Source: an uncultured Eubacteriales bacterium
Lineage (GTDB): Bacteria > Acidobacteriota > Aminicenantia > Aminicenantales > Saccharicenantaceae
DNA: 64,000 nucleotides
NCBI GenBank assembly: GCA_964525875.1
Contig: CAZGJS010000002.1
Coordinates: 118,577-182,576 of the forward strand
Direction: 5' to 3'
Shown: positions 22,407-63,770 of the stretch, piece after piece
Layout of the letters: each line of letters begins with the position of its first letter
How positions within the stretch are numbered: the stretch's first letter is position 1
Position numbers and translations under genes: made by a program
The notes under the pieces: model-generated
What the model was told of the DNA's origin: nothing
The model's input: the letters and a program-made list of their open reading frames with translations, nothing else
Database searches by the model: none

Positions 22407-22498
<92 letters not shown>

Positions 22499-22948: not shown

Positions 22949-23040
22949 TGGCGGAGAGGGCGGGATTCGAACCCGCGATCCCAATCGCTCGAGATAACGG
23001 TTTTCGAGACCGTCGCCTTCAACCACTCGGCCACCTCTCC
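22949..23040 (-). tRNA. tRNA-Ser (anticodon CGA)
   Basis: Reverse complement GGAGAGGTGGCCGAGTGGTTGAAGGCGACGGTCTCGAAAACCGT...CGCGGGTTCGAATCCCGCCCTCTCCGCCA. Anticodon loop CTCGAAA, long variable arm. The 3' 29 nt are identical to the other tRNA-Ser. Confidence 0.9.
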
Positions 23041-36217: not shown

Positions 36218-36262
36218 TTGCCCATCCTTTTTACACATTGGGGTTTGGCGCCATCGAACGTA

Positions 36263-37207: not shown

Positions 37208-37296
37208 CAGATCTTTCTACCCGCAAAAAATGCGTTATGCTATAATACGCGTCTTTGCCGGGGCCGCTGTCGAAGGCGGAAGGAGAATGGTCGCCC

Positions 37297-41379: not shown

Positions 41380-42395
41380 AGCCAGATCTTGCCCGATTTT
41401 TTCAGAAGGACGATGAAAAAGGGGATCCCGACGACACTCGTCAGGATGCCTATGGGAATTTCGAAGGAGGCCGCGCTCCGGGCGATGTCGTCGGCGACGA
41501 TGAGGAGCGAGGCCCCGCAAGCGGCCGAAAGCGGGATGACCTTCCGGTTGTCGGCGCCGACGGCCATGCGGACGAGGTGGGGGACGATGAGTCCGACCCA
41601 GCTGATGACGCCCGTGACGGCCGTGGCGGCGGCCGTCGTCAGAGCGGCCAGGACGACGACGGCGATCTTCTCCCGCTTGATGTTGACGCCCAGGGCGCGG
41701 GCTTCGTCGTCGCCGAGCGAAAGGACGTTCATCCGCCAGCGGAGGAGGATCAGCACGGTCACGCCGACGCCGATGACGGGCAGGGTCACACCGAGGTCCT
41801 TCCAGTCGGCCTGGGCCAGGCTGCCCATGAGCCAGAAGATCAGGGATTGAAGGGCATAGGGGTTGGCGAAGAACTCGACGAGAGACAGAAGGGCCTGGAA
41901 AAGGGCCGAGACGATGACGCCGCTGAGAAGGATGGTCACGACCTGCGAGGCGGCCTTGCCGGCGATGAACAGAACGGCCAGGACGGCGATGATGGCGAAT
42001 AAGAAGGCCGCGGCCTGGGCCGGGACCTTGCGACCGAGGAAAACGAGAGACAGGGCGGCGCCGAAGGCCGCGCCGTAGGATATTCCAAGACTGAATTCGA
42101 AGACCAGAGGATTCTTGAAGATGGCCTGGAGGGAAGCGCCGGACACCGCGAGAGCAGCGCCGGCGAAAAGCGCCAGGAGGAGCCGCGGCAGGCGGATACG
42201 GAAGAGGATGTCCGCATAGGGCGAGGGGCCGCCCGAGGCGCCGCCGGGAAAAATCGCGCCGACGATGGTTGTGAAGACAGCCTTGGGCGGAATGCGGTAG
42301 GCGCCGATGTTCAAGGACAGCAGGAGAAGGACGATAGGCAGCACGGCGGCCAGGACGAAAGCCGCCGTCGCTCTTTTATTCCGGTTTCCACTCAT
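41376..42395 (-). CDS. FecCD-family ABC permease (iron-siderophore/cobalamin-type importer)
   Basis: Polytopic membrane protein with the FecCD C-terminal region ...LTTAAATAVTGVISWVGLIVPHLVRM...IPIGILTSVVGIPFFIVLL. Start at the internal ATG (MSGNRNK). Confidence 0.8.
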   Translation of the reverse strand: MSGNRNKRATAAFVLAAVLPIVLLLLSLNIGAYRIPPKAVFTTIVGAIFPGGASGGPSPYADILFRIRLPRLLLALFAGAALAVSGASLQAIFKNPLVFEFSLGISYGAAFGAALSLVFLGRKVPAQAAAFLFAIIAVLAVLFIAGKAASQVVTILLSGVIVSALFQALLSLVEFFANPYALQSLIFWLMGSLAQADWKDLGVTLPVIGVGVTVLILLRWRMNVLSLGDDEARALGVNIKREKIAVVVLAALTTAAATAVTGVISWVGLIVPHLVRMAVGADNRKVIPLSAACGASLLIVADDIARSAASFEIPIGILTSVVGIPFFIVLLKKSGKIWL

Positions 42396-43455
42396 GGCAG
42401 TCGAGGATGCCGCAGAGGGCGCTGAAGAGGCCCTCCACTCCATAGAATTCCTTGAAAATGGCATCGCCTTCCCGGGTCAGGTCGAAGTTCGGGAAGCTTC
42501 CCGGATGAAAAAGCCGGGCGAGGTAGGCCGTTTCGACGAGGACGAGGGCCGGATCCCACCAGTACCAGAACCCGAACGTGTAATGGACGCGTCCATCCCG
42601 CACCGCCCGGACCGAGGCGATCCGGGGGTCCCCGAGGATACCCTCGACGGTCACCAGTCTCTCGGCCGGAGGATAATTGCCCTGGACGAGGATGACCTCC
42701 GGGTCCCAGAGCAGGATCTGTTCGAGGGATACGGTCGCGCCGGCCGTGCCGAGATAGGAAGGGAGGAGACGGGAGGCCAGGTTTCTTCCGCCGGCCGCTT
42801 CGACGGGCTCATAGGAGACCGGGGTCCGGAGGAGAGAGCCCCAAAAGGACAGGTAAACCGAGGGTCCGGCATCCGCTGCCCGGGGAGGGCCGATTCCGCG
42901 CACCAATTCCATGCGGCTTCCGAAGAAGGAAACGAGCTCCGCCGCGCGCTCCTCTCTGCCGAGGATCCGGCCGAGCGTTTCGATCTCCGCAAGGAGGTTC
43001 CGGAACTTGCCCATCGAGGCCAGCGCCACCACCGGCCGCTTCATTTTCCGCTCGATCGACTCGGTCATCCGGAATTCCGAAGGCGATGAAAAAATGATGT
43101 CGGGCCGCAGCCGGATGGCTTCCTCGTAGTTGAGTTCCTGGCCCTGGTTCGAAACGACCGGAAGGCGTTCGGAGGGAGGAAAAACGAGAGGAAAAAGCCG
43201 GTCGTGGTTGCGAAGAAAGAAGTCAACCCCCACCAGCCTCTTCCCCTCCCCCAGGGCGACGATGATCCGGGTGATCTCCGGCTCGAGCGAGATGATCCGC
43301 TCGACCCTGGCGGGGATGGCGACCGTCCGCCTCAGGCTGTCGACGACATTAATGGGACCTCCGGCCTGTCCGGCAACGCCGGCCGGCGCAGCCAGCATAA
43401 TCAGTACGGCCCCGCAGAGGAGACGATTTTTTCCGGCGCGGCCAAGGCATCTCAT
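42376..43455 (-). CDS. periplasmic substrate-binding protein, TroA-like/cluster-A (FecB/BtuF-type)
   Basis: Signal peptide and the class III PBP layout (RIISLEPEITRIIVALGEGKRLVGVD ... RPDIIFSS). Its start overlaps the upstream gene stop (ATGA). Confidence 0.75.
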   Translation of the reverse strand: MRCLGRAGKNRLLCGAVLIMLAAPAGVAGQAGGPINVVDSLRRTVAIPARVERIISLEPEITRIIVALGEGKRLVGVDFFLRNHDRLFPLVFPPSERLPVVSNQGQELNYEEAIRLRPDIIFSSPSEFRMTESIERKMKRPVVALASMGKFRNLLAEIETLGRILGREERAAELVSFFGSRMELVRGIGPPRAADAGPSVYLSFWGSLLRTPVSYEPVEAAGGRNLASRLLPSYLGTAGATVSLEQILLWDPEVILVQGNYPPAERLVTVEGILGDPRIASVRAVRDGRVHYTFGFWYWWDPALVLVETAYLARLFHPGSFPNFDLTREGDAIFKEFYGVEGLFSALCGILDCHEWKPE

Positions 43456-44123
43456 CGAAACCCGAAGACGACTTCGCCGAAGAATTCGGGCCGGTGGAAG
43501 TCGGGAGAAGGCGTGTCGACCGGGTTCCAGGCCCCATAGTGGGGGACTTCCGTCTCGTCACCGCACTTGTAGAAATTCGCTCTGGCCCGATGTCCGGGAA
43601 GGATATCCTGACCGTAGATCTTCCGGAAAAGGACGAGCGGCACCCTATACTCGAGGGTCCACGTGTCGCCGCCGTGCTCGCCGTCGCAGGGCCCGCCGAT
43701 CGACGAGGCGACGTCGAAGCCGGAAAGGTCTTCGGGCCAGAGCGGTTTTCGGTTGTTACGGTCGGGACCGAAGGCGGCCAATAGGATTCCCGCGGCGTTG
43801 GTCTCGAAATTGACGTATCCCTGCCGGCTCTCCGGGAAAGCGTCGATGAAGAACTCGACGCAGCTGTCCTTGTAGACGGGGTCCTGGAATTTCACGTATT
43901 TGACGCGAACCCGGCGCTCCCCCACCAGGAACCTGACATGGAGGGAACTGCGGGAATAACACAGCTTGACCTCGACAGGAGGGCGGTAGCCGTTGTCGAG
44001 CCAGAGATAGTGATCGATCCCGAGCGACGGGATCCCCGGCCAGGGCCCGGAGGCATCGCCGGGCAGGAACTCGGCGTCGACCGGCAGGATCGTGTACGAG
44101 CGTCGCGGTGCAGAGAGCGTCAT
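43452..44123 (-). CDS. cytoplasmic CBM9-like / DOMON-like domain protein
   Basis: 223 aa from the internal ATG (MTLSAPRR). The C-terminal PSPDFHRPEFFGEVVF resembles the family-9 carbohydrate-binding-module-like fold. No signal peptide. ATGA overlaps on both sides. Confidence 0.5.
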   Translation of the reverse strand: MTLSAPRRSYTILPVDAEFLPGDASGPWPGIPSLGIDHYLWLDNGYRPPVEVKLCYSRSSLHVRFLVGERRVRVKYVKFQDPVYKDSCVEFFIDAFPESRQGYVNFETNAAGILLAAFGPDRNNRKPLWPEDLSGFDVASSIGGPCDGEHGGDTWTLEYRVPLVLFRKIYGQDILPGHRARANFYKCGDETEVPHYGAWNPVDTPSPDFHRPEFFGEVVFGFR

Positions 44124-46249
44124 TTGACCGGCCCCGCACAGGCCTTGACCAACTTGGTCACGGCCGAGAGAACAGCGAGCTCGGCGTGGGCCGCCGGTTT
44201 GGCAGCTTCGGCCAGGATCGTCCCCTTTTCCTCCGCCCAGGCCGCCGGCTGGCTCTGCCCCTTCATGAGCCGGTCGAGCGCCTCGAGTCCGACCTCGCAG
44301 GCACGGGCCAGGCCGAGAGACAGAGGCTCGATCTCTCTCAAGGCCGGCGAAGCCGCGATGACCGGCAGGACCAGGACATGGTTGGCCTTCCATAGCGCCA
44401 GGGTCGCGCCGATCTCCCGGCCGAGCATCGGGTCTTTTCCAGCCAGGAATTGGTCGACTTTCTTCCTGAAGACCCGCGCGGCGAGGGATTCGGGCGCGCA
44501 GGCGTCGACGAAGCGCGTGAAGGGGGAAAGGCTGGTGTAGGCGGCCTGGCCGTGCCGCTGGTAATTCTTGAGCGGCTCGACGGCTTCCGCCAGGACCTGC
44601 AGCGGCTCGATCTGCGCGTCACCGGCGAGGCGTCTGAGCAGCATGTCCGGGTTCTTGAGATGCAGGAGGCCCAGCTCCTCGAGCTCGATGCTGACCGGAC
44701 CAAGCCGGCGGTACATTTCGTCGACGTTCGTCACCGAAGCCGGGGACCAGAGCCGCTCGGCGATGGCCGCCGTCCGCGGCCAGATCCGCGAGTCGATCGT
44801 TTCCGGCGTCACCAGCTCGGACCACATCGTCGCTTCGCCGCCCAGGATGAGCGCTTTCTGACGGTCGTCGAGCGGCGAATCCGGAGGCAGGGGGTCGTTC
44901 AGATAATGGACCTCGGCCGGCAGGCAGAGGTCGATGTAATAGCCGTTCGAGAGGATCCCCTGATATCCTTTTTGGGCGGCTTCGACGAGGGCCTTCGGGC
45001 CGCGCCACGAATGAATGACGATGTCGTTCGGCAGCCCGGGCTGAAAGACCTCGTCCCAGCCGACCATCTTCTTGCCGTACTTGGTCAGGATCTTGAGAAG
45101 ACGCTTGTTGAAATAGGCCTGGAGGGCGCCGTTGTCCACGAGGCCGTTCTTTTTCTTGAAGGCCTGGATGGCCGGGTTGGCGTCCCACTGATGGCCTTCG
45201 ACCTCGTCCCCACCGATGTGCAGGTACGGGTCGGGGAATAGGGCGCTCATCTCCTTGAGGAACGCGTCGAAGAAGGGATAGATCCGCTCGTCGGCCGGGT
45301 TGAAGGCCGGGCCGAAGACGCCGAACTTCCTTTCGATCCCGTAAGGGCCCGGCGCGCTCGAGAATTCGGGGTAGGCGACGAACCAGCTCGTCGAATGGCC
45401 GGGGATGTCGAACTCGGGCATGACCCGGATGCCGCGTTCGGCCGCGTAATCGATGACATCCCGGATCTGGGCCTGGGTGTAGAACATCCCATCGGAGCCG
45501 AGCTGGTGGAGCTTGGGAAACACCTTGGATTCGACCCGGAAGCCCTGGTCCTCGGTCAGATGCCAGTGGAAGACGTTCATCTTGACGGCGGCCATAGCGT
45601 CGAGGTTCCGCTTGATCACGTCGACGGGTTGGAAGTGCCGGCCGACGTCGATGAGCAGCCCGCGCCAGGTGAAGCGGGGCCTGTCGGCGATGTCGACGCA
45701 GGGAAAATAATAGCCTGCCTCGTCCGCGCTGAGAAGCTGGAGCAGGGTCTCGAGGCCGCGCAGGATGCCGATGTCGGTTTTCGCGCTCAGGACGACCTTC
45801 GCCGTATCGATTGAGAGAATGTAAGACTCGTCTTCGTTGGGCACGAGCGTGCCCGTCTTGTCGAAGCTGTAGAGGATTCCGCCTTCACCGGCCGGCTTTT
45901 GGACGGCCAGGAAATCCTGCTTCAGGAAGAGGCCCGTCCGGCCGGCCAACCGGGACATGAAACGGGCAGCGGCCCTGAAGGCACGGTCAGACGGAGCGAT
46001 GGGCAGGCGCTGGATGACGGAATCCCCGGACGGGAAACTGAGAATCTCGGGCTTCGTGCCGCCGATGACCAAGTTTTCATCGACCCTGAAGCGGCCCTCC
46101 CGGACGGTCACGCTCGCGGGAGCGGGCATGAGCTTGAGGACGCCGTCGACGGAAGCAGCGGCGGGCGCGTGTATCGCAAGGACGCTCCCGAGTGTCAAGA
46201 AGGTCAAGATGAAGAGAACCAGGGGTTTCGCCGACTGGTGTCCGGTCAT
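44120..46249 (-). CDS. beta-N-acetylhexosaminidase (GH20), secreted
   Basis: Signal peptide and GH20 catalytic region HIGGDEV (D-E pair), with RGLLIDVGRHF and the N-terminal chitobiase/zincin-like domain. 709 aa. Confidence 0.85.
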   Translation of the reverse strand: MTGHQSAKPLVLFILTFLTLGSVLAIHAPAAASVDGVLKLMPAPASVTVREGRFRVDENLVIGGTKPEILSFPSGDSVIQRLPIAPSDRAFRAAARFMSRLAGRTGLFLKQDFLAVQKPAGEGGILYSFDKTGTLVPNEDESYILSIDTAKVVLSAKTDIGILRGLETLLQLLSADEAGYYFPCVDIADRPRFTWRGLLIDVGRHFQPVDVIKRNLDAMAAVKMNVFHWHLTEDQGFRVESKVFPKLHQLGSDGMFYTQAQIRDVIDYAAERGIRVMPEFDIPGHSTSWFVAYPEFSSAPGPYGIERKFGVFGPAFNPADERIYPFFDAFLKEMSALFPDPYLHIGGDEVEGHQWDANPAIQAFKKKNGLVDNGALQAYFNKRLLKILTKYGKKMVGWDEVFQPGLPNDIVIHSWRGPKALVEAAQKGYQGILSNGYYIDLCLPAEVHYLNDPLPPDSPLDDRQKALILGGEATMWSELVTPETIDSRIWPRTAAIAERLWSPASVTNVDEMYRRLGPVSIELEELGLLHLKNPDMLLRRLAGDAQIEPLQVLAEAVEPLKNYQRHGQAAYTSLSPFTRFVDACAPESLAARVFRKKVDQFLAGKDPMLGREIGATLALWKANHVLVLPVIAASPALREIEPLSLGLARACEVGLEALDRLMKGQSQPAAWAEEKGTILAEAAKPAAHAELAVLSAVTKLVKACAGPVK

Positions 46250-49145: not shown

Positions 49146-49508
49146 TCAGGCCCCGCTGTCGTCCTTGGCCCCGAAAATGTGGTCGATCAACGCGAACTCG
49201 GCGTTGGGTTCCAGGCCGACGAACTGGAGCCCGGCCTCGAAGACCTCCTTGCCGTAGAGCTCCCTGGCCCAGCGGACCTCGCCGATGGCCCGTATCCGCT
49301 TGCGGGAGCGGCCCAGGGTGATGTCCAGACGGACGCGCGCGCCCATTTCGAGCGGGGCCACGGTCATGATGCGGACTCCGCCCATGGAAATATCGCGGGT
49401 GAGGGAATAGTAGACCGCCGGAGTGCCGGGGTGGATCTCGCCGGTCATCAACGAAACGACGACCTTGTTTTCCTCGACGATACGGACGTCCCGGCGCTTG
49501 TCCTTCAT
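49146..49508 (-). CDS. PilZ domain protein (c-di-GMP receptor-like)
   Basis: RRDVR (RxxxR) and DISMGG (DxSxGG) motifs in a 120-aa protein. Confidence 0.7.
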   Translation of the reverse strand: MKDKRRDVRIVEENKVVVSLMTGEIHPGTPAVYYSLTRDISMGGVRIMTVAPLEMGARVRLDITLGRSRKRIRAIGEVRWARELYGKEVFEAGLQFVGLEPNAEFALIDHIFGAKDDSGA

Positions 49509-49625: not shown

Positions 49626-49655
49626 TTGACAATCCGTCGATTTTTAAGGTATGTA
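49626..49655 (+). promoter_or_regulatory. candidate sigma-70 promoter (TTGACA-17/18-TATGTA) for the Gfo/Idh/MocA gene
   Basis: Two TTGACA hexamers (49611 and 49626) in the divergent PilZ/Gfo intergenic region. The second is followed after 17-18 nt by GTATGT/TATGTA. Confidence 0.3.
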
Positions 49656-49741
49656 GAGTCCTAAAAAAAAGTGGCCCCTCTGAGGGACCATATGGGGACA
49701 TGAACTTCTTAACCGTGTCCCCGATGCGGGAGATTCAAGAC

Positions 49742-50998
49742 ATGACAAAGAAAGCACAGGTCCTCGGCGTTGGAATCGTCGGCGGCGGGTTCATCGCCCG
49801 CTTCCACATCAAGTCCTGGGTCGGCGTCCGCGACGCCGACATCTTGGGCGTCTTCGACCCCGACGCGAAACGGGCACGGGAGGCCTGCGCCCTGGCCAAG
49901 TCGCTCGGCGTCGGCGAGGCCAGGCCCTACGCCTCGATCACGGACATGGCCGCCGATCCGCGCATCGGAGCCCTCTGGATCTGCGCCCCGAACTACACGC
50001 GGGGCGAGGTCATGGAGGAGATCAGTCAGGCCGTGATCAAGGGGAAGGCCGAGCTCGTCGGCGTGGCCTGCGAGAAGCCGCTCGGCCGCAACGTCCGCGA
50101 AGCGAAGAAGATGCTCGAGCTCGCGAGGAAGGCCGGCCTCCTCGACGGCTACCTGGAGAACCAGGTCTTCTCCCCGGCCGTCGTCCGGGGCAAGGAGATC
50201 GTCTGGGCCCGCGGCGCCGCTCTCTCCGGGCCGCCCTACCTGGCCCGCGCGGCTGAGGAGCACAGCGGACCCCACATGCCCTGGTTCTGGGAAGGCACGC
50301 TCCAGGGCGGCGGCGTCCTCAACGATATGATGTGCCACTCGGTCGAAGAGGCCCGGTTCATGCTGACCCCGCCCGGCGCCCGCCGCGACGTCCTGACCCC
50401 GGTGAACGTCACCGCCTATACCAACTGCCTCAAGTGGCAGGAGCCCAGATACGCCGCCATCCTGGCCAAAAACAGCGGCGGCAAGACGGACTACCTCAAG
50501 CGGCCGTCCGAGGACTTCGCCCGGGCGCTCGTCGAATTCAAGGACAGGGCCGGCAAGATCCTCGTCGTCGAGACGACGACGAGCTGGTGCTACGTGGGAG
50601 CGGGTCTCCGCCTGAGCATGGAGCTTCTCGGTCCCGAGTACGCCCTCCAGATCAACTCGCTCGACGCCGGACTCAAGGTCTTCTTCAGCCGCGAGGTCAA
50701 GGGCAAGGCCGGCGAGGACCTCGTCGAGAAACAAAACGCCGAGATCGGGCTGATGCCCATCGTCGCCGACGAAGCCGGCGAATACGGCTACATCGCCGAG
50801 AACCGACACATGGTCCAGTCCTTCATCCGCGGCGTCCGGCCGGAGGAGAATTTCACCGACGGCGTCGCCGTCGCCGAACTTCTCATGGCCGCCTATCGGA
50901 GCGCCGAGCTGGGCAAGACCCTGGCCTTCCCGTTCAAAGGCATGGATGATTACGTCCCGCCCGTAGCCCGTGGGAAATGGAACCCGAAGTCGAAGTGA
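49742..50998 (+). CDS. Gfo/Idh/MocA family NAD(P)-dependent oxidoreductase
   Basis: N-terminal Rossmann motif KAQVLGVGIVGGGFIARFH and the conserved EKP motif (ACEKPLGRN). Start set at MTKKAQ. The tracked ORF starts at 49700. Confidence 0.8.
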   Translation: MTKKAQVLGVGIVGGGFIARFHIKSWVGVRDADILGVFDPDAKRAREACALAKSLGVGEARPYASITDMAADPRIGALWICAPNYTRGEVMEEISQAVIKGKAELVGVACEKPLGRNVREAKKMLELARKAGLLDGYLENQVFSPAVVRGKEIVWARGAALSGPPYLARAAEEHSGPHMPWFWEGTLQGGGVLNDMMCHSVEEARFMLTPPGARRDVLTPVNVTAYTNCLKWQEPRYAAILAKNSGGKTDYLKRPSEDFARALVEFKDRAGKILVVETTTSWCYVGAGLRLSMELLGPEYALQINSLDAGLKVFFSREVKGKAGEDLVEKQNAEIGLMPIVADEAGEYGYIAENRHMVQSFIRGVRPEENFTDGVAVAELLMAAYRSAELGKTLAFPFKGMDDYVPPVARGKWNPKSK

Positions 50999-51018
50999 GA
51001 ACGAACGAAGGAGAACTC

Positions 51019-52500
51019 ATGAAACGCATTCCCGCCATCCTCGCCCTCGCCGTCTTCCTCGCCGCAGCGGCCGCCCCGGCCCTCGCGGCGGGCACGCCGG
51101 CCGCACCGCAGATCCGGCACATCTCGCCCGAGCTCCAGAAAGCCGTCGCTTCGACGGACTATGCGGGCGTGCGGATCAAGAAATTCCCCTTCGCCTCGGA
51201 GGCCTGGACGTTCCGCAATTTCACCTTTGTCGAGACCCTCCGGATGCTCAAGGAGCTGGGTGTCGCCGCCGTTGAGGCCTTCCCCGGCCAGGCCCTCGCG
51301 GCCGAGCTCCCCGGCGCACGCTTCGACGAGACGATGACGGCCGAACAGGTCGCCTTCGCCAAGGAGGCCCTCAAGGAGGCCGGCGTCACGCTCTACGGCT
51401 ACGGCGTCGTCGACATCGGCAAGACCGAAGAAAGCATGCGCAAGGTCTTCGACTTCGCCCGCAAGATGGGCATCCGCGTCGTCGTCTGCGAGCCGGCCGA
51501 CGACGACTTCACCCTGCTCGAGAAGCTGGTCAAGGAATACGACATCAAAATCGCCATCCACAACCACCCTGCGCCCTCGAAGTACAACCTGCCCGAGACC
51601 GTCTTCAGCCATATCGACGGCAAGGACCCGCGCATCGGCTCCTGCGCCGACAGCGGCCACTGGATGCGGGGCCTGAACGACCCGCGCGAGGCCTTCAAGC
51701 TCCTCCAGGGCCGTATCCTCGACGTCCACCTCAAGGATCGCAGCGATTTCGGCACGGCCAAGGGCGTCGACGACGTCTCTTGGGGCGCGGGCAAGGGGAT
51801 GATCCGCGACCTCCTGGCCGAGCTGACCCTCCAGGACTACGACGGCTACCTGACTATGGAATACGAGAACGAATCCGAGGTCGGCGACCCCCGGCCCGCC
51901 TTCCGCAAGAGCATCGCCTACGTCAAGAGCGTCACCTATTTCGAGGGCTACACCCAGATCCTCCGGCGTTCCGGCGGCCGCTACGAGAAACACGGCTGGA
52001 ACCACTATGGGCCGGGCTACTTCGAGGTCGACGAGAGGACGGGCGTCCTCAAGGGCCAGAGCGGCATGGGCCTCCTCTGGTACTCGAAAAAAGTCAGGGA
52101 CTTCGTCCTCGAGTTCGATTTCAAGTGTTCGACCGAGGCCACGAACTCGGGCATCTTCCTCCGCGTGCCCTCCGTCCCCGTGAGCGACGACTATATTTAT
52201 CATTCGATCGAGATCCAGATCGACGATAAGTCGACGGGCATCCATCACACCGGGGCCGCCTACGACATCGAGGCGCCCAAGGCCCTGGCCTCGCTCCCCA
52301 CGGGCGAATGGAACCACTTCAAGATCGAATTCAAGGGCATGCGCCTCAAGATCGAGCTCAACGGCAAGCCGGTCATGGACTGGGAGGCCAGGCCGGGCGG
52401 CAAGGTCAAGGACATCTCTCCCGAGGGCTACATCGGCCTCCAGAACCACGACAGCCAGTCCCCTCCCTACTTCCGGAACGTCTTTCTTAAAGAGCTCTGA
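51019..52500 (+). CDS. secreted fusion of a xylose-isomerase-like TIM-barrel (sugar phosphate isomerase/epimerase family) and a DUF1080 (3-keto-disaccharide hydrolase-like) domain
   Basis: GAAGGAGAA RBS, then signal peptide MKRIPAILALAVFLAAAAAPALAAG. The TIM-barrel part carries IAIHNHP...EYEN metal-site-like motifs. The C-terminal about 200 aa (WNHYGPGYFEV...GYIGLQNHDS...FRNVFLKEL) fits the DUF1080 jelly-roll pattern. Confidence 0.65.
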   Translation: MKRIPAILALAVFLAAAAAPALAAGTPAAPQIRHISPELQKAVASTDYAGVRIKKFPFASEAWTFRNFTFVETLRMLKELGVAAVEAFPGQALAAELPGARFDETMTAEQVAFAKEALKEAGVTLYGYGVVDIGKTEESMRKVFDFARKMGIRVVVCEPADDDFTLLEKLVKEYDIKIAIHNHPAPSKYNLPETVFSHIDGKDPRIGSCADSGHWMRGLNDPREAFKLLQGRILDVHLKDRSDFGTAKGVDDVSWGAGKGMIRDLLAELTLQDYDGYLTMEYENESEVGDPRPAFRKSIAYVKSVTYFEGYTQILRRSGGRYEKHGWNHYGPGYFEVDERTGVLKGQSGMGLLWYSKKVRDFVLEFDFKCSTEATNSGIFLRVPSVPVSDDYIYHSIEIQIDDKSTGIHHTGAAYDIEAPKALASLPTGEWNHFKIEFKGMRLKIELNGKPVMDWEARPGGKVKDISPEGYIGLQNHDSQSPPYFRNVFLKEL

Positions 52501-52549
52501 TCGGCCATCAGGCGCCTGGGAGAGCTGTTAGATAAAAGGAGAAGTGAGC

Positions 52550-53878
52550 ATGACAGCGGTAAAGAGTACGCGCAGCAGACTGTTTATCATGATGGTGATG
52601 GAGTTCTTCATCTGGGGCGCATGGCTTCCGCTGATATTCAGCTATTTGCCGAGTCTCGGATTCACCACGACCCAGCAAGCCTGGATCCTGAATGCCTTCC
52701 CCCTCTCGGCCATCGTCGGCATGTTTTTCAGCAACCAGTTCGCGGATCGACGTTTCGCCGCCGAGAAGTTCCTGGGTTTGAGTCACCTCATCGGCGGACT
52801 CGCGATACTCGGGCTGGGGTTCACCCGCGAGTTCTGGCCCTTTTTTGTCCTGATGTTCGTGCATTGCCTTTTCTACGTCCCGACCATCTCGATCGCCAAC
52901 TCGATCGCCTTCACCCACATGAAGGACGCGCAGAAGGAGTTCGGTTTTGTCCGCATGGGGGGCACCATAGGCTGGATTCTCGCCGCCTGGCCATTCACGT
53001 TCATCCTTGTGGATTGGGCCAGAGTTAAGGCAGCGGCGCCGCATGGAGTGGTCGCTTGGCTCGGAACAGTGCTCGGCTCGGGACTCTCCGGCCAAGCGTT
53101 GAAACAAGCGACGCGCTGGACATTCATCGTAGCGGGCGTCGTCTCTCTGGGCCTGGCCGCCTACAGCCTGCTTCTCCCGCACACGCCGCCAAAGAAAAAA
53201 AAGCTGGATGCTTCCGCTGCCGAACGCTTCGCGTGGCTTGAAGCGGTGAGGTTGCTCAAGCACCCGTTCGTACTGGTCCTTTGGTTCTTGACGTTCGTCG
53301 ACGCTTTCGTTCATAACTCGTATTTCAACTGGACCGCTTCGTTCCTCGGCGCTAGGCCGGAGGCCGGAGGAGTCGGCATTCCCGGCAACTGGATCATGCC
53401 CGTCATGAGTTTGGGCCAGGTCTCGGAGATCCTGACCATGCTCGCCCTGGGAGCCGTGTTGAAAAAACTCGGCTGGCGGATGACGATGCTCATAGGCATT
53501 CTTGGGCATGCCGGCCGGTTCGCGGTATACGCCTTTTTCCCCTCCCAGCCTTGGATGATCGTGGCTATCCAGGTCTTGCATGGCATCTGCTATGCTTTCT
53601 TCTTCGCCACGGTTTACATTTTTGTGGACGCGTATTTCCCTAAGGACGTTCGTTCGAGCGCGCAGGGGCTGTTCAATGTGATGATTCTCGGCCTCGGAGT
53701 GCTGGCGGCCAACTCGCTGTGCCCGTGGCTGATACAATCGGTCTTCACCGTCAACGGCGTTACAGACTTCCGCTCGATGTTCTTGCTGCCGTGCCTGACC
53801 GCGCTGGGAGCCGCTATCTTGCTGGCTGTGGCCTTCCGGCCTCCGGCAAGGGTCGAGACGGGCCAAGGCCTATCTTAG
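52550..53878 (+). CDS. MFS transporter, nucleoside:H+ symporter (NHS/NupG-like) family
   Basis: N-terminus [23 protein letters not shown], the NHS family hallmark, with 12 TM helices. AGGAG lies 8 nt upstream of the ATG. Confidence 0.7.
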
Positions 53879-53891: not shown

Positions 53892-54107
53892 TTGCGGGCT
53901 GCGATGAAGATCCGCTACCTCGACGGCAACAGACTGTACTACGCCTTCCTCGCCGGCGGACAGGCGGTCATCCGCGTCCCAACGTTTCTTCTTGTCCGGG
54001 TCTCCGGCATCCCGATGCTCGAGAAAAAATACGCCGGGAACGCGGAGTTCCAAGCCTACGCCCGCAGGACGAACGCCTTCGTCCCCTGGTTCCCGAAAAA
54101 GCCTTAG
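53892..54107 (+). pseudogene. C-terminal fragment of an ICMT/PEMT/DUF1295-like membrane methyltransferase
   Basis: The 71-aa ORF ends ...[32 protein letters not shown]. This matches the conserved C-terminal EE..L...FG..Y..Y...VP.FIP tail of that family. It lacks the TM/SAM-binding body. Confidence 0.3.
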
Positions 54108-57100
54108 AAGCCCGGGCTGATGCTCAACTGCAGATGCCAGCCGCGGACCGGCCGGTCGATCGGGTAGACGTAGTTCAACCCGAGGATGAGGTAGCCGAAG
54201 AGGTTCGTCCTCAGGCCGATACCGGCGCTGCTGATGGGCTTCCGGTTGCCGCCCAAGAACGTGGGTTTGACGTCCTCCGGGGTCTCCCCGCCCCACCAAT
54301 AACCGGGGTTCTGGGCGTAGGCGATGCCCCAGTCGAAGAAACCGAAGAATTCGAGGGGCCAGGCGCCGAAGTAGCCCTTGCCGATGCCCAGGACACCGAG
54401 CAGGGGAAAGCGCAATTCCACGTTGCCCATTAGCATCTTGCTACCGTAGAGCCGGTTGGGATCGAAGGCGTTGTCCGGATCCTGTTGGTACACGCTCAAC
54501 TCAGCGCTGGAGAACGACTCGTAGCCGCGGACGAGGTCCCAGTAGGCGATATAAAGGGGATAGAACCGATCGTCCTCGGCGTCCTTCCCATAGCGCCCCA
54601 CGTGAAGAGCCCGGAAGGCCAGCGTGAAAGGCCTCAACGGCATGAAGTACTTACGGAAATCCGCCGAGGCCGTTATAAAGTTTATGCTTCCGATGGCCGG
54701 AGACACGGACAGGCCGATATTCTGTCCGAGGATGGGGCTCGTCGCCCCGAATATCCCGCTGTCATAATAATAGCCCGCTGTCAGGTAGCCGAAGGACATC
54801 GCCGGGGGCGTCGGCACTCTCTCTTTTTCGTAGGCGATCAGGCCGCCGCTGACCAAGGAATAGATCCGGGTGTAAAGCGTCCGTTGGAAATCCTGGATGC
54901 GGAAACCCGCGCTCAGCGAGAACCGGCTGACCTGGCTGAAGGGATAGGAGCCGAAGACGGAGAAGTCGTAGTTGATGAGCCGGTAGATATCCCGCACCTC
55001 GAAGATCGCGGGTTCTCCCGCGAATTCGTCCTCGAACAGATAGTAATAGGGATAAGGATAGACGATCCGCTGGGCCGCCGAGCCCCAGTTGAAGCGTCCT
55101 TTGTTGTTGAGGTAGGCCAGGACGCCGGAGGTGTCGACGATTTGCGACCCGGTGAACGCGGTCGTGATGATCGTCTGGGTGCCGAGCATGTCGCTCCAGA
55201 ACGCGGAGACGCCGCCTGCGGCGTAGGTCCCATAGCGGTCGGCGCCGATGCCGATGGAAGCCGGCGAAACATAGTCCAGGGCGAGCTTGGGCTTGTATGC
55301 GGAAATCGCGAAGTTCGTGTCCTTGGGCAGGCCGAAGAGCGGGTTCTTGAGGAGGCCAAGGAGTGCGCCCTCGGCTTCCGCGCGCGGCGGCAGGAGGGCC
55401 GGGTTGCGGTCGAACTGAGCCAGGAAAGCCTGCCCCTCGAGGACCTTCGCGTCGTCGATCGAATAGACCGTGTAGTAACTGTCCTGGTAGCCGGAGAAGA
55501 CGACCCGGCCGGTGTTCAGGGCGACCGAAATGGCGGGACTGAGCTCGGTGATGCCGCTGATACCCGTGTACAGGTTCGTGACCTGGAAAAGTTGGCCCGA
55601 GGCGATATCGATCCGGTAGAGGTCGGTCTTGCCGTTCTGGTCGGAGAGGAAATAGAGCCCCTTCGAGTCCGCGGTCCATTGGGGGTTGATGTTCTTGCCG
55701 TTGGGGAAGCCCAGGAGCTTCTGGATCCGGCCCGACTCGACGTCGAGCAGGGCCAGCTCGTAGTTCCCGATATCGACCCAGTCGAGGTTGGTCGAGAACC
55801 GCTCGGTAACGAAGGCGATGGTCTTGCCGTCGGGCGACCAGACCGGCTGGAGGTCGGCGAAGACGTCCCTTGTCATCTGTTTGAGGACGTTGTCTTTGAG
55901 GTCGTAGATGAAGAGGTCCGAGACCCCGCCGGTCAGGGCGGTGAAGGTGACGTAGCGGCCGTCGGGCGACCAGGCCGGGCTGAGGATCTCGGCCAGTTCG
56001 CCGAAGGGGATCTCCCGCTCGATCTTGTCCTTCTTCATGTCGAGGATGATCAAGACCGGGCGGCCCTTGGCCACGCCGCCGAAGACAAATTTCTCGCCCG
56101 TGGCGTCCCAGGAGCCGGCGGACTTGATGAATTGGATGCTCTCGAAATGGGGGTCCACGGCGGTCGAGATGATCTTCCGCCTGATCTTGCCGGCGTCGGC
56201 ATCCGCCAGGTAAAGGTCGATCGAGAACATGTCCCGGGTCGAAAGAAACACGAGTTCTTTGCCGTCGGGGCTGATGGACGGCGCGATATTGTAGGGATTG
56301 GATTCCACGCCTTTGAACAACGCCTTGGCGAACTTGTCGGGCGCCTGGGTTTTTTCGATGAGCCCGTTGTAGGCGTCCTGCATCGATTTATGCCAATCGG
56401 CCGAAAGCTGCTTCAGCTTGATGCCGAGCACGCCCTCGAGGATGATCTCGTAGTCCCCGGCGCGGCCGACGGACTTCATCATCTTGCCGATGACTTCGTC
56501 CCCCCATCGTCCGGTGATGTACGCCCACACGGCCTGGCCCCAGCGGTAGGGGAAATACTTGTAGGAGTTTCCAAGCTTGCTGATCTGCGGCAGTTCCTTG
56601 CGGCGGACGGCGTCCCGCATCCACATCGAGGTGTTCTGATCGACCGGCCCGATGGACAGATACTCGGCCATGCCCTCGATGAACCAGAGGGGAATGCGGA
56701 GGCCCATCTCGTTCCCCCGGGCCTGGTCGGAATGGCCCTGGGCCATGATATCGTACTGGAAGGCGTGGACGAGCTCGTGTCCGATGACGTGGTCGGTTTC
56801 GGAGAGCGAGGCGCCATAGGGCAGGACGATCCGGCGCTTGAACGACTCGGTGACGCCGCCGGTGCCTTCGCCCAGGATCTCGCTGATGACGGTCGTCTGC
56901 TGGAATTCCGGGCCGCTCCCGTAGAGGATGAGCGGCTGACGGCCCTTGAGCTCATGGTTGAACATCCGGGAGAGACGCGCATACCAGCGCTCGGCCATGA
57001 GGGCGGCCAGCTTGACCGTCTGTTCGTCCTGGAGATAGAAGTAGATGTCGTAGTGCCGGGTCTTCATGATCTTGAAATCGAACTTCTGGTACTGAACCTT

Positions 57101-57205
57101 GTTCCGGCCGTAATACTGGGCCTGGAGGCCCGGCGCGCCCACGCCGGCCAGGAAGCCCACGAGGCTCAACGCAATTAGGACTCTGGAAAGAGCGGTATGC
57201 CGCAT
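54104..57205 (-). CDS. multidomain surface protein: HExxH metallopeptidase (MA-clan-like) + TolB-like PD40 beta-propeller repeats + C-terminal Omp85/BamA-type beta-barrel
   Basis: Start at [21 protein letters not shown] with GAGGAGG 7 nt upstream, followed by a signal peptide. [10 protein letters not shown]...[11 protein letters not shown] (HExxH...E zincin). PD40-like repeats [56 protein letters not shown]. The C-terminal about 400 aa is a beta-strand-rich barrel ending ...[12 protein letters not shown]. The tracked ORF starts at 57295. Confidence 0.65.
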
Positions 57206-57553
57206 GGATGTCCTCCTCTGAATACGGACGTATTGTAGCGGAAAAAGACCAAAGCGGGAAATGCCCTCCCGAACGGGAGGCTTTGATGCGAGCATAGGTC
57301 GAAACTCCTTTCGACCCCTTTCCGCCGATATCTTACCGGAAACATCGGGTTTTGTCTATAACGCACTAGGATGCAGCTAAGTTGCTGGCACATGACGCCA
57401 CCCGGGCTGTGATGGGGACCATCCAGAGCCCCCGTAGCGGAGGGGGACCCATCGGCTTGCCGATGGGGGAACCGCCGGGACTGGTTCCCGGGGGGGCCGG
57501 GGGATATGGGTGGTCCCCGTCGCAGCCAAAAGGGGTGGCGTCAAAGGGGCGTG

Positions 57554-60283: not shown

Positions 60284-62017
60284 GTGTTCAAGATGTTCGA
60301 CAAGAAAAGGATTCACGGCGTCCTGGCCCTCGCCGCCGTCCTCTTGTTCGCAGGCGGGCTGAGCCTGGACCTCGGCCATAACCCGGCTTCCGGCCCCGCC
60401 CTCGACAAGACGGCGGAAGCCTGCACGGTCATCATGGTCGGCCGCGAGGCCTCGACCGACGGCTCGGTCATGAGCACGCACGCCGCCGACTGCGGCGTCT
60501 GTGACTTCACCTGGAGGCATGTCCCGGCCGCCGCCCATAAGCCGGGCTCCACGAGAAAGCTCTACCACATCGACCAGATCCGGACCTGGCCGCCCTCCGA
60601 GGGTCTCAAGTGGGACATGGTCCTCAAGGACTTCACCGGAGTCGAGATCCCGCAGGTGTCGCACACCTACGGCTACCACCACTCCGTCTTCGGCTACATG
60701 AATGACCAGCAGCTGGCCATTGCCGAATCGACCATCAGCAACGTCCGCAAGCTCTCAAACCCCACGCCGACCCCTGCTCTGAACATCTCCATGCTGACCC
60801 TCCTGGCCATGGAACGGGGCCGGACGGCCCGCGAGGCCATCACGCTCATGGGCGCGCTGGCCGAGGAGTACGGTTATGGCTACCACGACGGCGGCGAGAT
60901 GCTGGCCGTCTCCGATGCGAAGGAGATCTGGGTTTTCGAGATCATGCCGGTCGGCCCGCTGTGGACGCCTAAGTCGGGAAAGCCAGGGGCGGTCTGGGCG
61001 GCCCAACGGGTTCCGGACGACCACGTCTCCGTCTGTCCTAACGAGGCGCGCATCGGGGAAATGGACCTCGCCAATTCAGACTATTTCATGTCCTCGGCGC
61101 ACGTTGTGACTTACGCCGTCGAGGCCGGGCTCTACGACCCGAAAATTGGTAAACCCTTCAGCTGGAAGAAAGCGTATTCGCCTGCCGAGGGGAGTGCGCT
61201 CAGCACCGAGGGCCGCCGCTCCCGCATGTGGCGTTTCTTCGACCTCGTCGCCCCCTCCCAGAAGTTCAAGGTCGAATTGCCCAACATGGACTTCCCCTTC
61301 TCCGTCAAACCCGACGCCAAGCTCTCGGTCCGGGACGTCATGGCCCTGACCCGCGATAAATCCCAGGGCTCGGTTTTCGATCCCGTCCGGGGGCTCCGAG
61401 GCGGCCCCTTCAAGAACCCGAACTATTACAAGGGCACGCGCCTCATCAGCGTCCCCAACGTCGAGTATACGACCCTGACCCAGTGCCGCTCGTGGCTTCC
61501 CGACCCGGTCGGAGGCATCGTCTGGGTCGCCCTCGGCGCCCAGGACACGTCCTGCTACGTCCCGTTCTACGCCGGGGCGACCGAGATCCCCAAGTCCTTC
61601 GGCATCGGCGACCACTTCGTCCTCAACCGGGACTCCGCCCGCTGGGCCTTCGACTACGTCGACTTCCACGTCCAGGTCGCCTACAACGCCGCCGTCGAGG
61701 ACGTCAAGGCGGCCCGGAAAACCTGGGAGGACGGCGCTCTCGACCGCGTCCCCGAGATCGACGCCCGGGCGGCCGAGCTCTACAAGAAGAATCCCAAGGA
61801 GGCCGTCCGCTTTCTCACCGACTTCAGCCTGAGCAACGCGACGAGCGTGGTCGGCGCCTGGTGGAAGCTCGGCGACGACCTCTGGGTGAAATACAACCAC
61901 CTCGGCCTCTACGACGCCGAGAAGCGGTCGAGCGGCCGCATCCCCACGGCCAACCCGGAGTGGTGGAACAGGGCCGTCAAGGCCTTCGACGTCCTGACGG
62001 AACCGGAAAAGAAGTAG
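60284..62017 (+). CDS. peptidase C69 family dipeptidase (Ntn-hydrolase, secreted), copy 1
   Basis: Signal peptide then AEACTVIMVGREASTDGSVM (nucleophile Cys exposed after processing). 577 aa. Shares about 75% identity with the next gene. Confidence 0.8.
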   Translation: MFKMFDKKRIHGVLALAAVLLFAGGLSLDLGHNPASGPALDKTAEACTVIMVGREASTDGSVMSTHAADCGVCDFTWRHVPAAAHKPGSTRKLYHIDQIRTWPPSEGLKWDMVLKDFTGVEIPQVSHTYGYHHSVFGYMNDQQLAIAESTISNVRKLSNPTPTPALNISMLTLLAMERGRTAREAITLMGALAEEYGYGYHDGGEMLAVSDAKEIWVFEIMPVGPLWTPKSGKPGAVWAAQRVPDDHVSVCPNEARIGEMDLANSDYFMSSAHVVTYAVEAGLYDPKIGKPFSWKKAYSPAEGSALSTEGRRSRMWRFFDLVAPSQKFKVELPNMDFPFSVKPDAKLSVRDVMALTRDKSQGSVFDPVRGLRGGPFKNPNYYKGTRLISVPNVEYTTLTQCRSWLPDPVGGIVWVALGAQDTSCYVPFYAGATEIPKSFGIGDHFVLNRDSARWAFDYVDFHVQVAYNAAVEDVKAARKTWEDGALDRVPEIDARAAELYKKNPKEAVRFLTDFSLSNATSVVGAWWKLGDDLWVKYNHLGLYDAEKRSSGRIPTANPEWWNRAVKAFDVLTEPEKK

Positions 62018-62045
62018 CGGTATTCTTGAAAGATAGGAGGGCATC

Positions 62046-63770
62046 ATGAACAGGAAACGACTCATCGCCGTCGGCGGGACACTCGTCCTGGCCGTCGTCC
62101 TGGCCGGCCTCATTTCGACGGCCGGGAGCCAGGCCCTGGCCGGCCTCGACGACATCGTCCTCGCCGGCGAAGCGTGCACGTCCATCCTCGTCGGCAAGGA
62201 CGCCTCGACGGACGGCTCCGTCATGACGACGCACACCTGCGACTGCGGCACGTGCGACTGGACCTGGCGTCACGTCCCGGCCGCCGACCACAAGCCCGGC
62301 TCGACCCGAAAGATCTACCATATCTCGCAGTACAAGACCTGGCCGCCGTCGGAGGGCCTCAAGTGGGACCTCTACAAGAAGGACTTCGCCGGTCTCGAGA
62401 TCCCCGAAGTCCCCCGAACCTACGCCTACCACCACGGCATGTTCGGCTACATGAACGAGAAGCAGGTTTCGATCGGCGAATCGACCATCGGCTGTCAGCG
62501 CAAGATGCAAAACCCAACGCCGGCGGCCAAGCTCGACCTGACCATGCTGACGCTGCTGGGGATGGAACGAGGCGGCACGGCTCGCGAGGCCATCCAGGTC
62601 ATGGGCTCTCTCGCCGAAAAGTACGGCTACGGCTTCCATGACGACGGCGAGATGCTGGCCGTGGCCGATACGAAGGAGGCCTGGATCTTTGAGATCATGC
62701 CCGCGGGACCCCTGTGGACCCCGGAGAGCGGCAAGCCCGGCGCCGTCTGGTGCGCCCAGCGCGTCCCCGACGATCACGTCAGCGTCTGCCCCAACGAATC
62801 GCGCATCGGCGAGATCGACCTCGACAACAAGGACTTCTTCATGGCCTCGTCGAATGTCGTCTCGCTGGCCGTCGACATGGGCTACTACGACCCGAAGGGC
62901 GGCAAGCCCTTCAACTGGAAGAGGGCCTACTCCCCGGTCGAGGGCAGCGCGGCCGGCACCAACGGCCGGATCCAGAGGCTGTGGCGCTTCTTCGATATCG
63001 TCGCCCCGTCCAAGAAGTTCAAGCCCGAGACGCCTAACATGGACCTGCCGTTCTCGGTGAAACCCGACGCCAAGGTTTCCGTCCAGGACGTCATGAACAT
63101 GACCCGGGACCGGAGTTACGGGACGCCCTTCGACCCGGTCATGGGCATCCGCGGCGGGCCGTTCAAGAACCCCAACTACTACCGCGGGACGCGGGTCATC
63201 GACCACGGCCTGGCCGAGTACTCAACGGTCACCCAAAGCAGGACCGGCCTGCCCGACGCGATCGGCGGCATCGTCTGGATCGCCTTCGGCTCCCAGGACA
63301 CATCCTGCTACATGCCGCTTTACGCCGGAATGACCGAGATGCCCAAGTCCTTCATGGTCGGAGACCATTGGACCTTCAGTCGGGATTCGGTCCGCTGGGC
63401 CTTCGACTACACCGATTTCCACGTCCAGGTCGCCTACTCCGAGGCCATCAAGGACGTCATGGCGGCCCAGGCCAAATACGAAGGGGAAACGATCGCCCGC
63501 ATCCCGGAGATCGACCAGCAGGCCCTGGCCCTCTACAAAAAGAAACCGGCCAAGGCAGCCGAGTTCCTGACAGGGTTCGCGCTCAATAACGTCACGACGG
63601 TCGTCAACGCCTGGTGGAAGCTCGGCGACGACCTCCTCGTCAAGTACAACCGGCTCTACCTCTACAACGCCGAGAAACGGGGCTTCTCCCGCGGCCAGCC
63701 GGCGACTCCCGACTGGTGGAAGAAGGCCGTTCGGGCGTTCGACATTCTCATGGAACCCGAGAAGAAGTAG
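62046..63770 (+). CDS. peptidase C69 family dipeptidase, copy 2 (tandem paralog)
   Basis: AGGAGG RBS, signal peptide, then GEACTSILVGKDASTDGSVM. Colinear with copy 1 over the full length. Confidence 0.8.
   Translation: MNRKRLIAVGGTLVLAVVLAGLISTAGSQALAGLDDIVLAGEACTSILVGKDASTDGSVMTTHTCDCGTCDWTWRHVPAADHKPGSTRKIYHISQYKTWPPSEGLKWDLYKKDFAGLEIPEVPRTYAYHHGMFGYMNEKQVSIGESTIGCQRKMQNPTPAAKLDLTMLTLLGMERGGTAREAIQVMGSLAEKYGYGFHDDGEMLAVADTKEAWIFEIMPAGPLWTPESGKPGAVWCAQRVPDDHVSVCPNESRIGEIDLDNKDFFMASSNVVSLAVDMGYYDPKGGKPFNWKRAYSPVEGSAAGTNGRIQRLWRFFDIVAPSKKFKPETPNMDLPFSVKPDAKVSVQDVMNMTRDRSYGTPFDPVMGIRGGPFKNPNYYRGTRVIDHGLAEYSTVTQSRTGLPDAIGGIVWIAFGSQDTSCYMPLYAGMTEMPKSFMVGDHWTFSRDSVRWAFDYTDFHVQVAYSEAIKDVMAAQAKYEGETIARIPEIDQQALALYKKKPAKAAEFLTGFALNNVTTVVNAWWKLGDDLLVKYNRLYLYNAEKRGFSRGQPATPDWWKKAVRAFDILMEPEKK

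Follow-up and report, generated by a model that had tools for sequence, protein, structure and literature searches.

A 64-kb stretch of contig CAZGJS010000002.1 (assembly GCA_964525875.1)—hereafter the window, that is, the whole stretch of DNA analysed—carries three neighbouring plus-strand genes that encode a Gfo/Idh/MocA oxidoreductase (Gfo), a fusion of a xylose-isomerase-like TIM barrel with a DUF1080 domain, and a permease of the nucleoside/H+ symporter (NHS) family within the major facilitator superfamily (MFS). The genes were defined by their reading frames with a high G+C content at third codon positions (GC3 0.76-0.90). With a G+C content of 63%, the window contains housekeeping genes including RNase P RNA, two tRNA-Ser genes, NuoLMN, PFOR and DnaX, and the nearest homologues of its proteins carry the name Candidatus Aminicenantes. 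The exact fusion protein, in the same gene neighbourhood, is present in two Logan assemblies. With moderate confidence, we read the three genes as one operon on an Aminicenantes chromosome that would be a trimmed derivative of a longer, cross-phylum operon and whose steps would proceed as proposed below.

A three-gene cassette

Pfam searches bore out the domain identities that a first-pass annotation, made from the letters of the DNA and a list of its open reading frames, had given the three proteins. The frame at 49700-50998 matched GFO_IDH_MocA (PF01408; E=2.6e-19) as well as GFO_IDH_MocA_C3; the frame at 50977-52500 matched AP_endonuc_2 (E=1.2e-16) and then PF06439 (E=4.3e-34), which is DUF1080 and is currently named 3keto-disac_hyd in Pfam, as had been predicted for the C-terminal domain; and the frame at 52544-53878, whose start was refined to ATG 52550, matched Nuc_H_symport (PF03825; E=3.2e-113). 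Judged by sequence, all three cassette proteins lack close relatives that have been characterised. The coordinates of all features are collected in Table 1.

Table 1 Features of the cassette, its borders and chromosomal markers in the window.
Feature	Position	Strand	Basis or remark
Gfo/Idh/MocA NAD(P)-dependent sugar oxidoreductase, 418 aa, predicted cytoplasmic	49742..50998	+	Pfam PF01408, PF22725
Predicted exported two-domain enzyme, 493 aa (signal peptide, TIM barrel, DUF1080)	51019..52500	+	Pfam
Sec signal peptide, aa 1-23, MKRIPAILALAVFLAAAAAPALA	51019..51087	+	AXA cleavage site
Xylose-isomerase-like TIM barrel	51190..51930	+	orphan 3p6l/3lmz/4kw2 subfamily
DUF1080 domain (3-keto-disaccharide 'hydrolase', lyase-hydratase)	51991..52497	+	PF06439; 3s5q/3imm subfamily
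NHS-family MFS permease, 442 aa	52550..53878	+	PF03825
Promoter-like element TTGACA-N18-TATGTA, directly 5' of cassette	49626..49655	+	read from sequence
5' leader of Gfo, ~80 nt	49660-49741	+	near-identical in window clade, few substitutions
Leader hairpin GGGGACA-N15-TGTCCCC	49694..49722	+	spans non-conserved ATG 49700
PilZ gene, divergent	49146-49508	-	upstream border of cassette
PD40/peptidase gene, 1063 aa, convergent	54104-57295	-	downstream border; beta-propeller and peptidase-MA/M9-like region
RNase P RNA, bacterial class A	6843-7221	-	268 bits; ordinary chromosomal marker
tRNA-Ser, two genes (anticodons GGA and CGA)	22407-22498, 22949-23040	-	ordinary chromosomal markers

Predicted opposite topologies of the oxidoreductase and the fusion

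The start of the Gfo was placed at ATG 49742, which has a GGGAG ribosome-binding site. An earlier ATG at 49700 is not conserved: in five orthologous loci it is followed by AAC TTC TGA, and thereby by an in-frame stop. The suspicion that this earlier start might unmask a cryptic twin-arginine translocation (Tat) signal did not hold, as the 14 extra residues contain no arginine pair and the orthologues are interrupted by the in-frame TGA. Neither a Tat nor a Sec signal was found on the window Gfo from either start, and no signal peptide was found among the Gfo orthologues inspected. All motifs of the Gfo/Idh/MocA family are kept, namely the Rossmann G9VGIVG (GxGxxG), E111-K-P, and G189GGVLNDMMCH199 (GGG-x3-D195-x3-H199).

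For the fusion, the start was placed at ATG 51019, which has GGAG 6 nt 5' of it and was also picked by the gene caller. Its signal peptide, anticipated by the first-pass annotation, is of a textbook Sec type, with cleavage predicted between MKRIPAILALAVFLAAAAAPALA and AG and a highest 15-residue hydropathy of 2.56; in an AlphaFold2 model of the protein (pLDDT 89.6, pTM 0.87) it forms a low-confidence N-terminal helix. Sec or lipoprotein signals were present on all fusion homologues inspected. Since the Gfo has no signal peptide and the fusion carries a Sec signal, the two proteins are predicted to have opposite topologies, the Gfo being cytoplasmic and the TIM::DUF1080 fusion exported.

Relatives of the three proteins

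The best matches of the Gfo among structures in the PDB were GenD2 and KanD2 (1e-19), both 3''-dehydrogenases of aminoglycoside sugars, followed by the uncharacterised oxidoreductase 4gqa (2e-16) and, all at ~1e-12, the uncharacterised dehydrogenase 3ezy, levoglucosan dehydrogenase (6a3f), anhydrofructose reductase and DgpA. An assignment as levoglucosan dehydrogenase was rejected, the protein scoring 47 bits against the 650-bit equivalog cut-off of NF052479.

With respect to the fusion, profile matches of the DUF1080 domain reached ~4e-48 for 3s5q and 3imm, which are shorter proteins and its closest relatives of solved structure, and 2.7e-22 for AL2 (8v31). Conserved within it are N376, E398-x-Q400, Y415 and Q475-x-H477, corresponding to N134, E164, Q166, Y190, Q273 and H275 of BT2 in the list of channel residues drawn up for BT2/AL2 (Asn, Glu-x-Gln, Tyr, Lys, Gln-x-His; bioRxiv 10.1101/2024.03.25.586180). 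The TIM domain had been taken for a relative of the known partner lyases of Gfo enzymes. It proved to be no demonstrable relative of any characterised lyase at the level of sequence, its match to DgpBC being one of generic fold only, and it belongs to an orphan subfamily typified by 3p6l. The Parabacteroides distasonis structures 3p6l (BDI_1903), 3lmz, 4kw2 (BDI_1873), 3s5q, 3imm and 3u1x (BDI_1869) differ from the fusion in being single-domain proteins, and their functions are unassigned. BDI_1869 and BDI_1873, which we take from their locus tags to lie four tags apart, hint that the subfamilies travel together unfused.

The permease shares the PF03825 fold with the symporters NupG, XapB and YegT (PMC8042404), is 24% identical to E. 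coli NupG, and scored 172 bits with TIGR00889, under the 446-bit cut-off. In NupG, uridine is bound by R136, T140, F143, Q225, N228, Q261, E264, Y318 and F322, and D323 is needed for uridine binding (PMC8042404). Alignment to NupG revealed the ribose-contacting R136, T140 and E264, together with Q261, to be invariant both in the window permease type and in a second NHS paralogue type described below. At the base-contacting positions, both types have N228 replaced by F or Y and Y318 by H, and D323 is replaced by A or V; the window permease itself reads W for F143, N for Q225, F for N228, H for Y318, Y for F322 and A for D323. The protein keeps the NHS fold but not the canonical nucleoside pocket. 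Unlike those of NupG, XapB and YegT, its genomic partners are sugar-redox enzymes rather than nucleoside enzymes.

Conservation of the cassette within Aminicenantes

To assess the conservation of the cassette, we scanned one genome per species, inspecting ~13 kb in each, and obtained 52 Aminicenantes loci. In all 45 of the 52 that covered both genes, the Gfo gene was directly followed by the fusion gene in the same orientation, and none had another order. An NHS permease gene adjoined the pair in nearly all loci whose flank was covered, albeit in two layouts. The layout of the window (Gfo / fusion / NHS; layout C) occurred in 23 complete loci, with permeases 74-96% identical to that of the window, while 18 loci had the order NHS' / Gfo / fusion (layout B), in which NHS' is a paralogue ~35% identical to the window permease. 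Given that these layouts recur across the loci of Aminicenantes species, the link between the NHS permease and the enzyme pair is conserved rather than incidental. Apart from a Tat-exported Gfo (Tat-Gfo) in the single locus L043, no paralogues of the cassette genes were found in the window or near the orthologous loci.

Two loci showed disruptions: in L054 (4765-7491), the Gfo and fusion genes each match in two reading frames, and an in-frame stop interrupts the permease gene of L024 (7531-8844); both cases reflect either indels introduced by sequencing into metagenome-assembled genomes from long reads or decaying copies of the cassette. Twelve of the loci (L004, L011, L014, L019-L022, L028, L034, L036, L043 and L051) lie in assemblies titled 'uncultured Eubacteriales bacterium', although their proteins are 57-91% identical to those of Aminicenantes genomes, and the taxonomy of these records is probably wrong.

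A widespread fusion and a longer, cross-phylum operon

An exhaustive search of 50%-identity representatives with the fusion returned 4469 matches (E<=1e-3), among them TIM::DUF1080 proteins that align over their full length with 32-39% identity, as well as variants to which further DUF1080, HEAT or ThuA modules have been added. A profile of distant fusions matched 5594 clusters at E<=1e-20, many of them from Planctomycetota. The TIM::DUF1080 architecture is therefore common, with thousands of sequences, yet uncharacterised. The first-pass annotation had considered the combination of such a fusion with an NHS-type transporter unusual, a view that we abandon given the thousands of clusters with the fusion and the recurrence of the NHS link across ~50 Aminicenantes species and three other lineages. 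Many of these homologues appear in databases as 'family 16 glycoside hydrolase' or as 'DUF1080 domain-containing protein'; the names 'family 16 glycoside hydrolase' and 'sugar phosphate isomerase/epimerase' are probably wrong for thousands of entries.

Other mixtures of the same modules were seen as well. P0160 is a shorter ThuA::DUF1080 protein and P0131 a HEAT::TIM::DUF1080 protein, and a 1356-aa Planctomycetota protein with ThuA, HEAT repeats and DUF1080 (L059 1-2107) is encoded just 5' of Tat-Gfo genes.

Planctomycetota provided three loci in which the fusion has Gfo neighbours on both sides, each of them with a twin-arginine signal, and two of these loci (L061/L062 and L063) additionally contain genes for a multihaem cytochrome and a cytochrome b. 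These cytochromes could provide an electron outlet for periplasmic sugar oxidation. The multihaem cytochrome, of ~610-630 aa, follows the Tat-Gfo and the fusion (L061 7871-10424; L063 3458-5966); the gene after it encodes a cytochrome-b-like membrane protein in L061/L062 and has no Pfam match in L063.

The most divergent Aminicenantes-type locus, L043, contains an extra upstream gene for a 532-aa Gfo with the twin-arginine signal RRRDILK. Searching with this Tat-Gfo and reading the neighbourhoods of the matches revealed a recurrent five-gene operon with the order DoxX / Tat-Gfo / NHS' / cytoplasmic Gfo / TIM::DUF1080. It is complete in L043, L065, L067, L069 and L073, the last from candidate division KSB1; low-GC Aminicenantes relatives or metagenome contigs with the operon comprise L065, L067, L069, L071 and L072. 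The Gemmatimonadota locus L066 combines an upstream stand-alone TIM gene with DoxX / Tat-Gfo / NHS / Gfo and has no DUF1080 gene in the stretch covered. In L074, the slot of the fusion is occupied by a separate 275-aa TIM protein, which has a lipoprotein signal and is 52% identical to the TIM domain of the window, followed by a separate multi-DUF1080 gene. These split genes connect the two domains in Rosetta-stone fashion. At the single-domain matches from Verrucomicrobia and Mucilaginibacter (L055-L058), neither Gfo nor NHS nor DoxX genes were found linked.

The window cassette and the cross-phylum operon (including that of GCA_029907585.1) have the same order of Gfo, TIM and DUF1080. Between the two, the cytoplasmic Gfo proteins share 70-76% identity and the fusion or TIM proteins 47-68%; for NHS', layout B and the full operon share 58-68% identity. 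Cassette and operon differ in that the window has neither DoxX nor Tat-Gfo and that its permease lies downstream instead of upstream and is ~35% identical to NHS'. Since DoxX and Tat-Gfo are gone, the permease has been swapped for a downstream paralogue and the remaining genes are homologous, the window cassette would be a trimmed derivative of the longer operon. The Tat-Gfo of the longer operons is only ~25% identical to the window Gfo.

Some further associations were noted around the periplasmic dehydrogenase. P0496 is a 698-aa fusion of Tat-Gfo and DoxX (PF07681), which suggests that the two work together. A gene for an ApbE flavin-transferase adjoins DoxX/Tat-Gfo in the full operons (L065 5236-6183; L066 5414-6448; L067 4409-6068; L069 4334-5993; L071 4518-6249), and a NusG_II-domain protein accompanies ApbE in L067, L069, L071 and L072, the copy in L069 having a twin-arginine signal of its own. 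The covalent flavinylation motif [ST]GA[ST] was not found in the proteins of the ApbE-adjacent operons.

Comparison with known systems and a proposed route

An oxidise-eliminate-hydrate-reduce route for glycosidic bonds has recently been worked out in gut Bacteroidota. In Alistipes and Bacteroides, it comprises four enzymes, AL1-AL4 and BT2156-BT2159, respectively (bioRxiv 10.1101/2024.03.25.586180; PMC8121099). AL1/BT1 is a Sec-exported TIM barrel acting as a 3-keto-beta-glucoside 1,2-lyase, AL2/BT2 a DUF1080 lipoprotein with 3-keto-alpha-glucoside lyase and 2-hydroxy-3-keto-glucal hydratase activity, AL3/BT3 a Tat-exported Gfo 3-dehydrogenase with tightly bound NAD, and AL4/BT4 a cytosolic Gfo without which the route still runs in vitro (bioRxiv 10.1101/2024.03.25.586180). 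At the level of protein family and predicted topology, the window likewise encodes an exported TIM barrel, an exported DUF1080 domain with the active-site residues kept, and a cytosolic Gfo, and the longer operon amounts to the complete AL/BT enzyme set plus a permease and DoxX. What sets the window apart is that no Tat-exported Gfo 3-dehydrogenase is encoded beside its putative lyases. Matched by topology, the window Gfo would correspond to the second, cytosolic Gfo (AL4/BT2159) and not to the periplasmic 3-dehydrogenase. The first-pass annotation is thus upheld in part: the Tat-Gfo flanks in Planctomycetota and the enzyme set shared with BT2156-2159/AL1-4 speak for its 3-keto-glycoside theme, while the role and the compartment assigned to the Gfo do not stand.

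Two further groups of systems offer parallels. The periplasmic 3-ketoglycoside route of Agrobacterium and Caulobacter involves ThuAB or LacABC, a DUF1080 'hydrolase', AtOGE/AtHYD and a 3-ketoglucose reductase (PMC9007349, PMC10628242), and for Caulobacter, a transporter and a reductase for 3-keto-galactose have been proposed from fitness data (PMC9007349). The levoglucosan pathway LgdA/LgdB1/LgdB2/LgdC (PMC10066097) and the DgpA/DgpBC systems for C-glycosides resemble the arrangement considered here in combining C3 oxidation by a Gfo, elimination and hydration by a TIM barrel, and reduction by a second Gfo, but they are wholly cytoplasmic and lack DUF1080.

The layout suggests roles for the permease and the cytoplasmic Gfo. 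From the domain identities, topology signals, synteny and homology described above, we infer the following catalytic and transport steps. A C3-oxidised glycoside would arise in the periplasm, supplied by a Tat-exported Gfo encoded elsewhere in the genome or by other organisms; the exported fusion would cleave and hydrate such 3-keto-glycosides; the permease, which we propose to be an importer of the keto-sugar product, would take it up, maybe as a furanose; and the cytoplasmic Gfo, proposed to be a keto-sugar reductase, would convert the import to an ordinary sugar using NAD(P)H. In the full operon, periplasmic C3 oxidation of glycosides would fall to the Tat-Gfo itself, and the electrons could reach quinone through DoxX or, in Planctomycetota, through the cytochromes. 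The authors of the AL study considered that respiratory proteins might re-oxidise AL3, and 3-keto-glucose is reported to be mainly furanose. If reducing equivalents are drained to respiration, the 3-keto-sugar could not be re-reduced in the periplasm and would therefore need import and cytoplasmic reduction, which in turn would account for the constant company of permease and cytoplasmic Gfo. Import of a furanose would suit a permease that retains the ribose-contact residues of NupG.

In the lineage of the window, the dehydrogenase step would be either unlinked or lost. It is possible, though we would not expect it, that Aminicenantes of high GC no longer have any periplasmic dehydrogenase, the trio then serving by itself in the salvage of 3-keto-glycosides or keto-sugars of neighbours, with the permease importing a keto-sugar and the Gfo acting as a dedicated 3-keto-sugar reductase. 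If so, keto-sugars, possibly 3-keto-hexofuranose, would give the NHS family its first class of substrates other than nucleosides, and a role would be assigned to the unexplained enzymes of the AL4/BT2159 type.

More generally, the same enzyme set comes in other arrangements in Aminicenantes, KSB1, Gemmatimonadota and Planctomycetota, all of them uncultured phyla of sediment and soil. These arrangements feature a fused lyase/hydratase, DoxX or cytochrome partners, and an NHS-type permease paired with a highly conserved cytoplasmic Gfo. They raise hypotheses on the role of the cytosolic Gfo (AL4/BT2159), on the re-oxidation of a periplasmic NAD-bound enzyme, and on the cargo of NHS permeases with an altered base pocket.

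Weighing the proposed route against alternatives

Several points count against the route proposed here. A periplasmic 3-dehydrogenase of the Tat-Gfo type was found neither in the 64-kb window nor, for 51 of the 52 loci, in the 6 kb around the cassette. The Gfo is without a close characterised relative. Two loops present in the nearest relatives are deleted in the DUF1080 domain, so that the equivalent of BT2 Lys245 is not mappable. We know of no member of the NHS family with a non-nucleoside substrate. Finally, the role of AL4/BT2159 is itself not established (bioRxiv 10.1101/2024.03.25.586180).

The first of these points bears on the alternative that the cassette has no dehydrogenase of its own and that the fusion, permease and reductase harvest 3-keto-glycosides or keto-sugars from other organisms or abiotic sources. 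Such scavenging would fit the absence of DoxX and Tat-Gfo from the locus in 51 of 52 species, in which the trio is nonetheless 70-96% identical and syntenic, and no other sugar-oxidising gene lies in the 64-kb window. Yet with ~13 kb inspected per genome, an unlinked Tat-Gfo is possible, proteins of this type labelled as Aminicenantes do exist, and environmental pools of 3-keto-glycosides are undocumented; we consider this alternative unlikely.

A second alternative leaves the theme of the pathway unchanged and concerns the division of labour within the fusion: the TIM domain might be a keto-sugar epimerase or isomerase instead of a lyase, in which case DUF1080 alone would eliminate and hydrate. 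The precedent would be YcjR, a 3-keto-glucoside 4-epimerase. The TIM domain, however, has no sequence-level affinity to YcjR (E=1.1), and its HxH...D...H...E constellation is common to most members of the fold and hence non-discriminating; we regard an epimerase as quite unlikely. The putative correspondence of the metal site to that of AL1/BT1 (His/Asp/His, with a Glu base) was judged by motif order and spacing.

The reading advanced in the first-pass annotation, a self-contained cassette in which C3 oxidation of a glycoside by the Gfo prepares it for cleavage by the fusion, draws on what Gfo enzymes and their TIM and DUF1080 partners are known to do, and on the invariable adjacency of the two genes. 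It founders on compartments: as the Gfo has no signal peptide and ATG 49700 is not conserved, it cannot feed a periplasmic fusion. The same separation pervades the relatives, in which no Gfo orthologue has a Tat or Sec signal, the frame from 49700 is interrupted and the fusion homologues all bear signals, and where a periplasmic dehydrogenase exists, it is the different, ~25% identical Tat-Gfo. We deem this sequence of steps very unlikely and give it up in favour of the route through import and cytoplasmic reduction.

Highly improbable, too, is a nucleoside or pseudonucleoside cassette, in which the Gfo would receive a nucleoside-like glycoside through the permease while the fusion acts on a related extracellular precursor. 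The strong PF03825 match, the conserved ribose-contact residues and Q261, and the best PDB relatives of the Gfo, which oxidise the 3''-OH of aminoglycoside sugars, are compatible with it; set against these are the score under the TIGR00889 cut-off, the replacement of N228, Y318 and D323 (PMC8042404) and the lack of nucleoside-catabolic genes nearby in the window.

An inositol-type locus (IolG plus IolE), named in the first-pass annotation as an outcome that would refute its reading, and a GH16-type glycoside hydrolase were both rejected and have next to no chance of being correct: the NCBIfam matches to IolG (TIGR04380; 56 against 355 bits) and IolE (TIGR04379; 26 against 290 bits) fall far under their cut-offs, no other iol genes are present and export is wrong for an inosose dehydratase, and despite the NCBI label 'family 16 glycoside hydrolase' on some homologues, the GH16 catalytic motif E-x-D-x-(x)-E, searched as E-[ILV]-D-[IVAF]-[VILMF](0,1)-E, was not found in the fusion sequence, just as the authors of the AL2/BT2 work find no such motif in DUF1080 (bioRxiv 10.1101/2024.03.25.586180).

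Upstream region and leader of the Gfo gene

A generic promoter and terminator scan returned nothing exceeding background, and the promoter-like block at 49626-49655 was seen only by alignment. The block, TTGACAAyCCG...TAtnTA, lies directly 5' of the Gfo gene in all layout-C loci, even where a co-directional AMP-ligase gene replaces PilZ upstream, and may act as a promoter. Within the leader, the hairpin arms GGGGACA and TGTCCCC are identical across the window clade (window, L003, L005, L006, L007 and L049) and the loop is variable. The hairpin is not present in the more distant layout-C loci, where leaders are short or different, and an Rfam search of the leader returned no matching family. 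A second, imperfect hairpin lies at 49672-49690.

Surroundings of the cassette

At 41376-46249, with 3.5 kb between it and the cassette downstream, lies a minus-strand group of genes for a GH20 beta-hexosaminidase (44120-46249), a CBM9-like protein, a periplasmic binding protein and a FecCD-type ABC permease; in some orthologous loci (L008 and L009), a GH29-like fucosidase gene is found near the cassette instead.

The window further encodes two tandem C69 dipeptidase paralogues (60284-63770), a gamma-glutamyltranspeptidase (34361-36238) and M16 peptidases (8708-11478). Together with the PD40/peptidase protein at the downstream border, these would fit the view of Aminicenantes as degraders of peptides. 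Lastly, two overlapping genes at 37255-40558 encode a protein of 718 aa that combines 2Fe-2S, FAD/pyridine-nucleotide-disulphide and 4Fe-4S domains, and a DAO-family FAD oxidoreductase, a pair that resembles opine, sarcosine or HCN-synthase-type oxidases.

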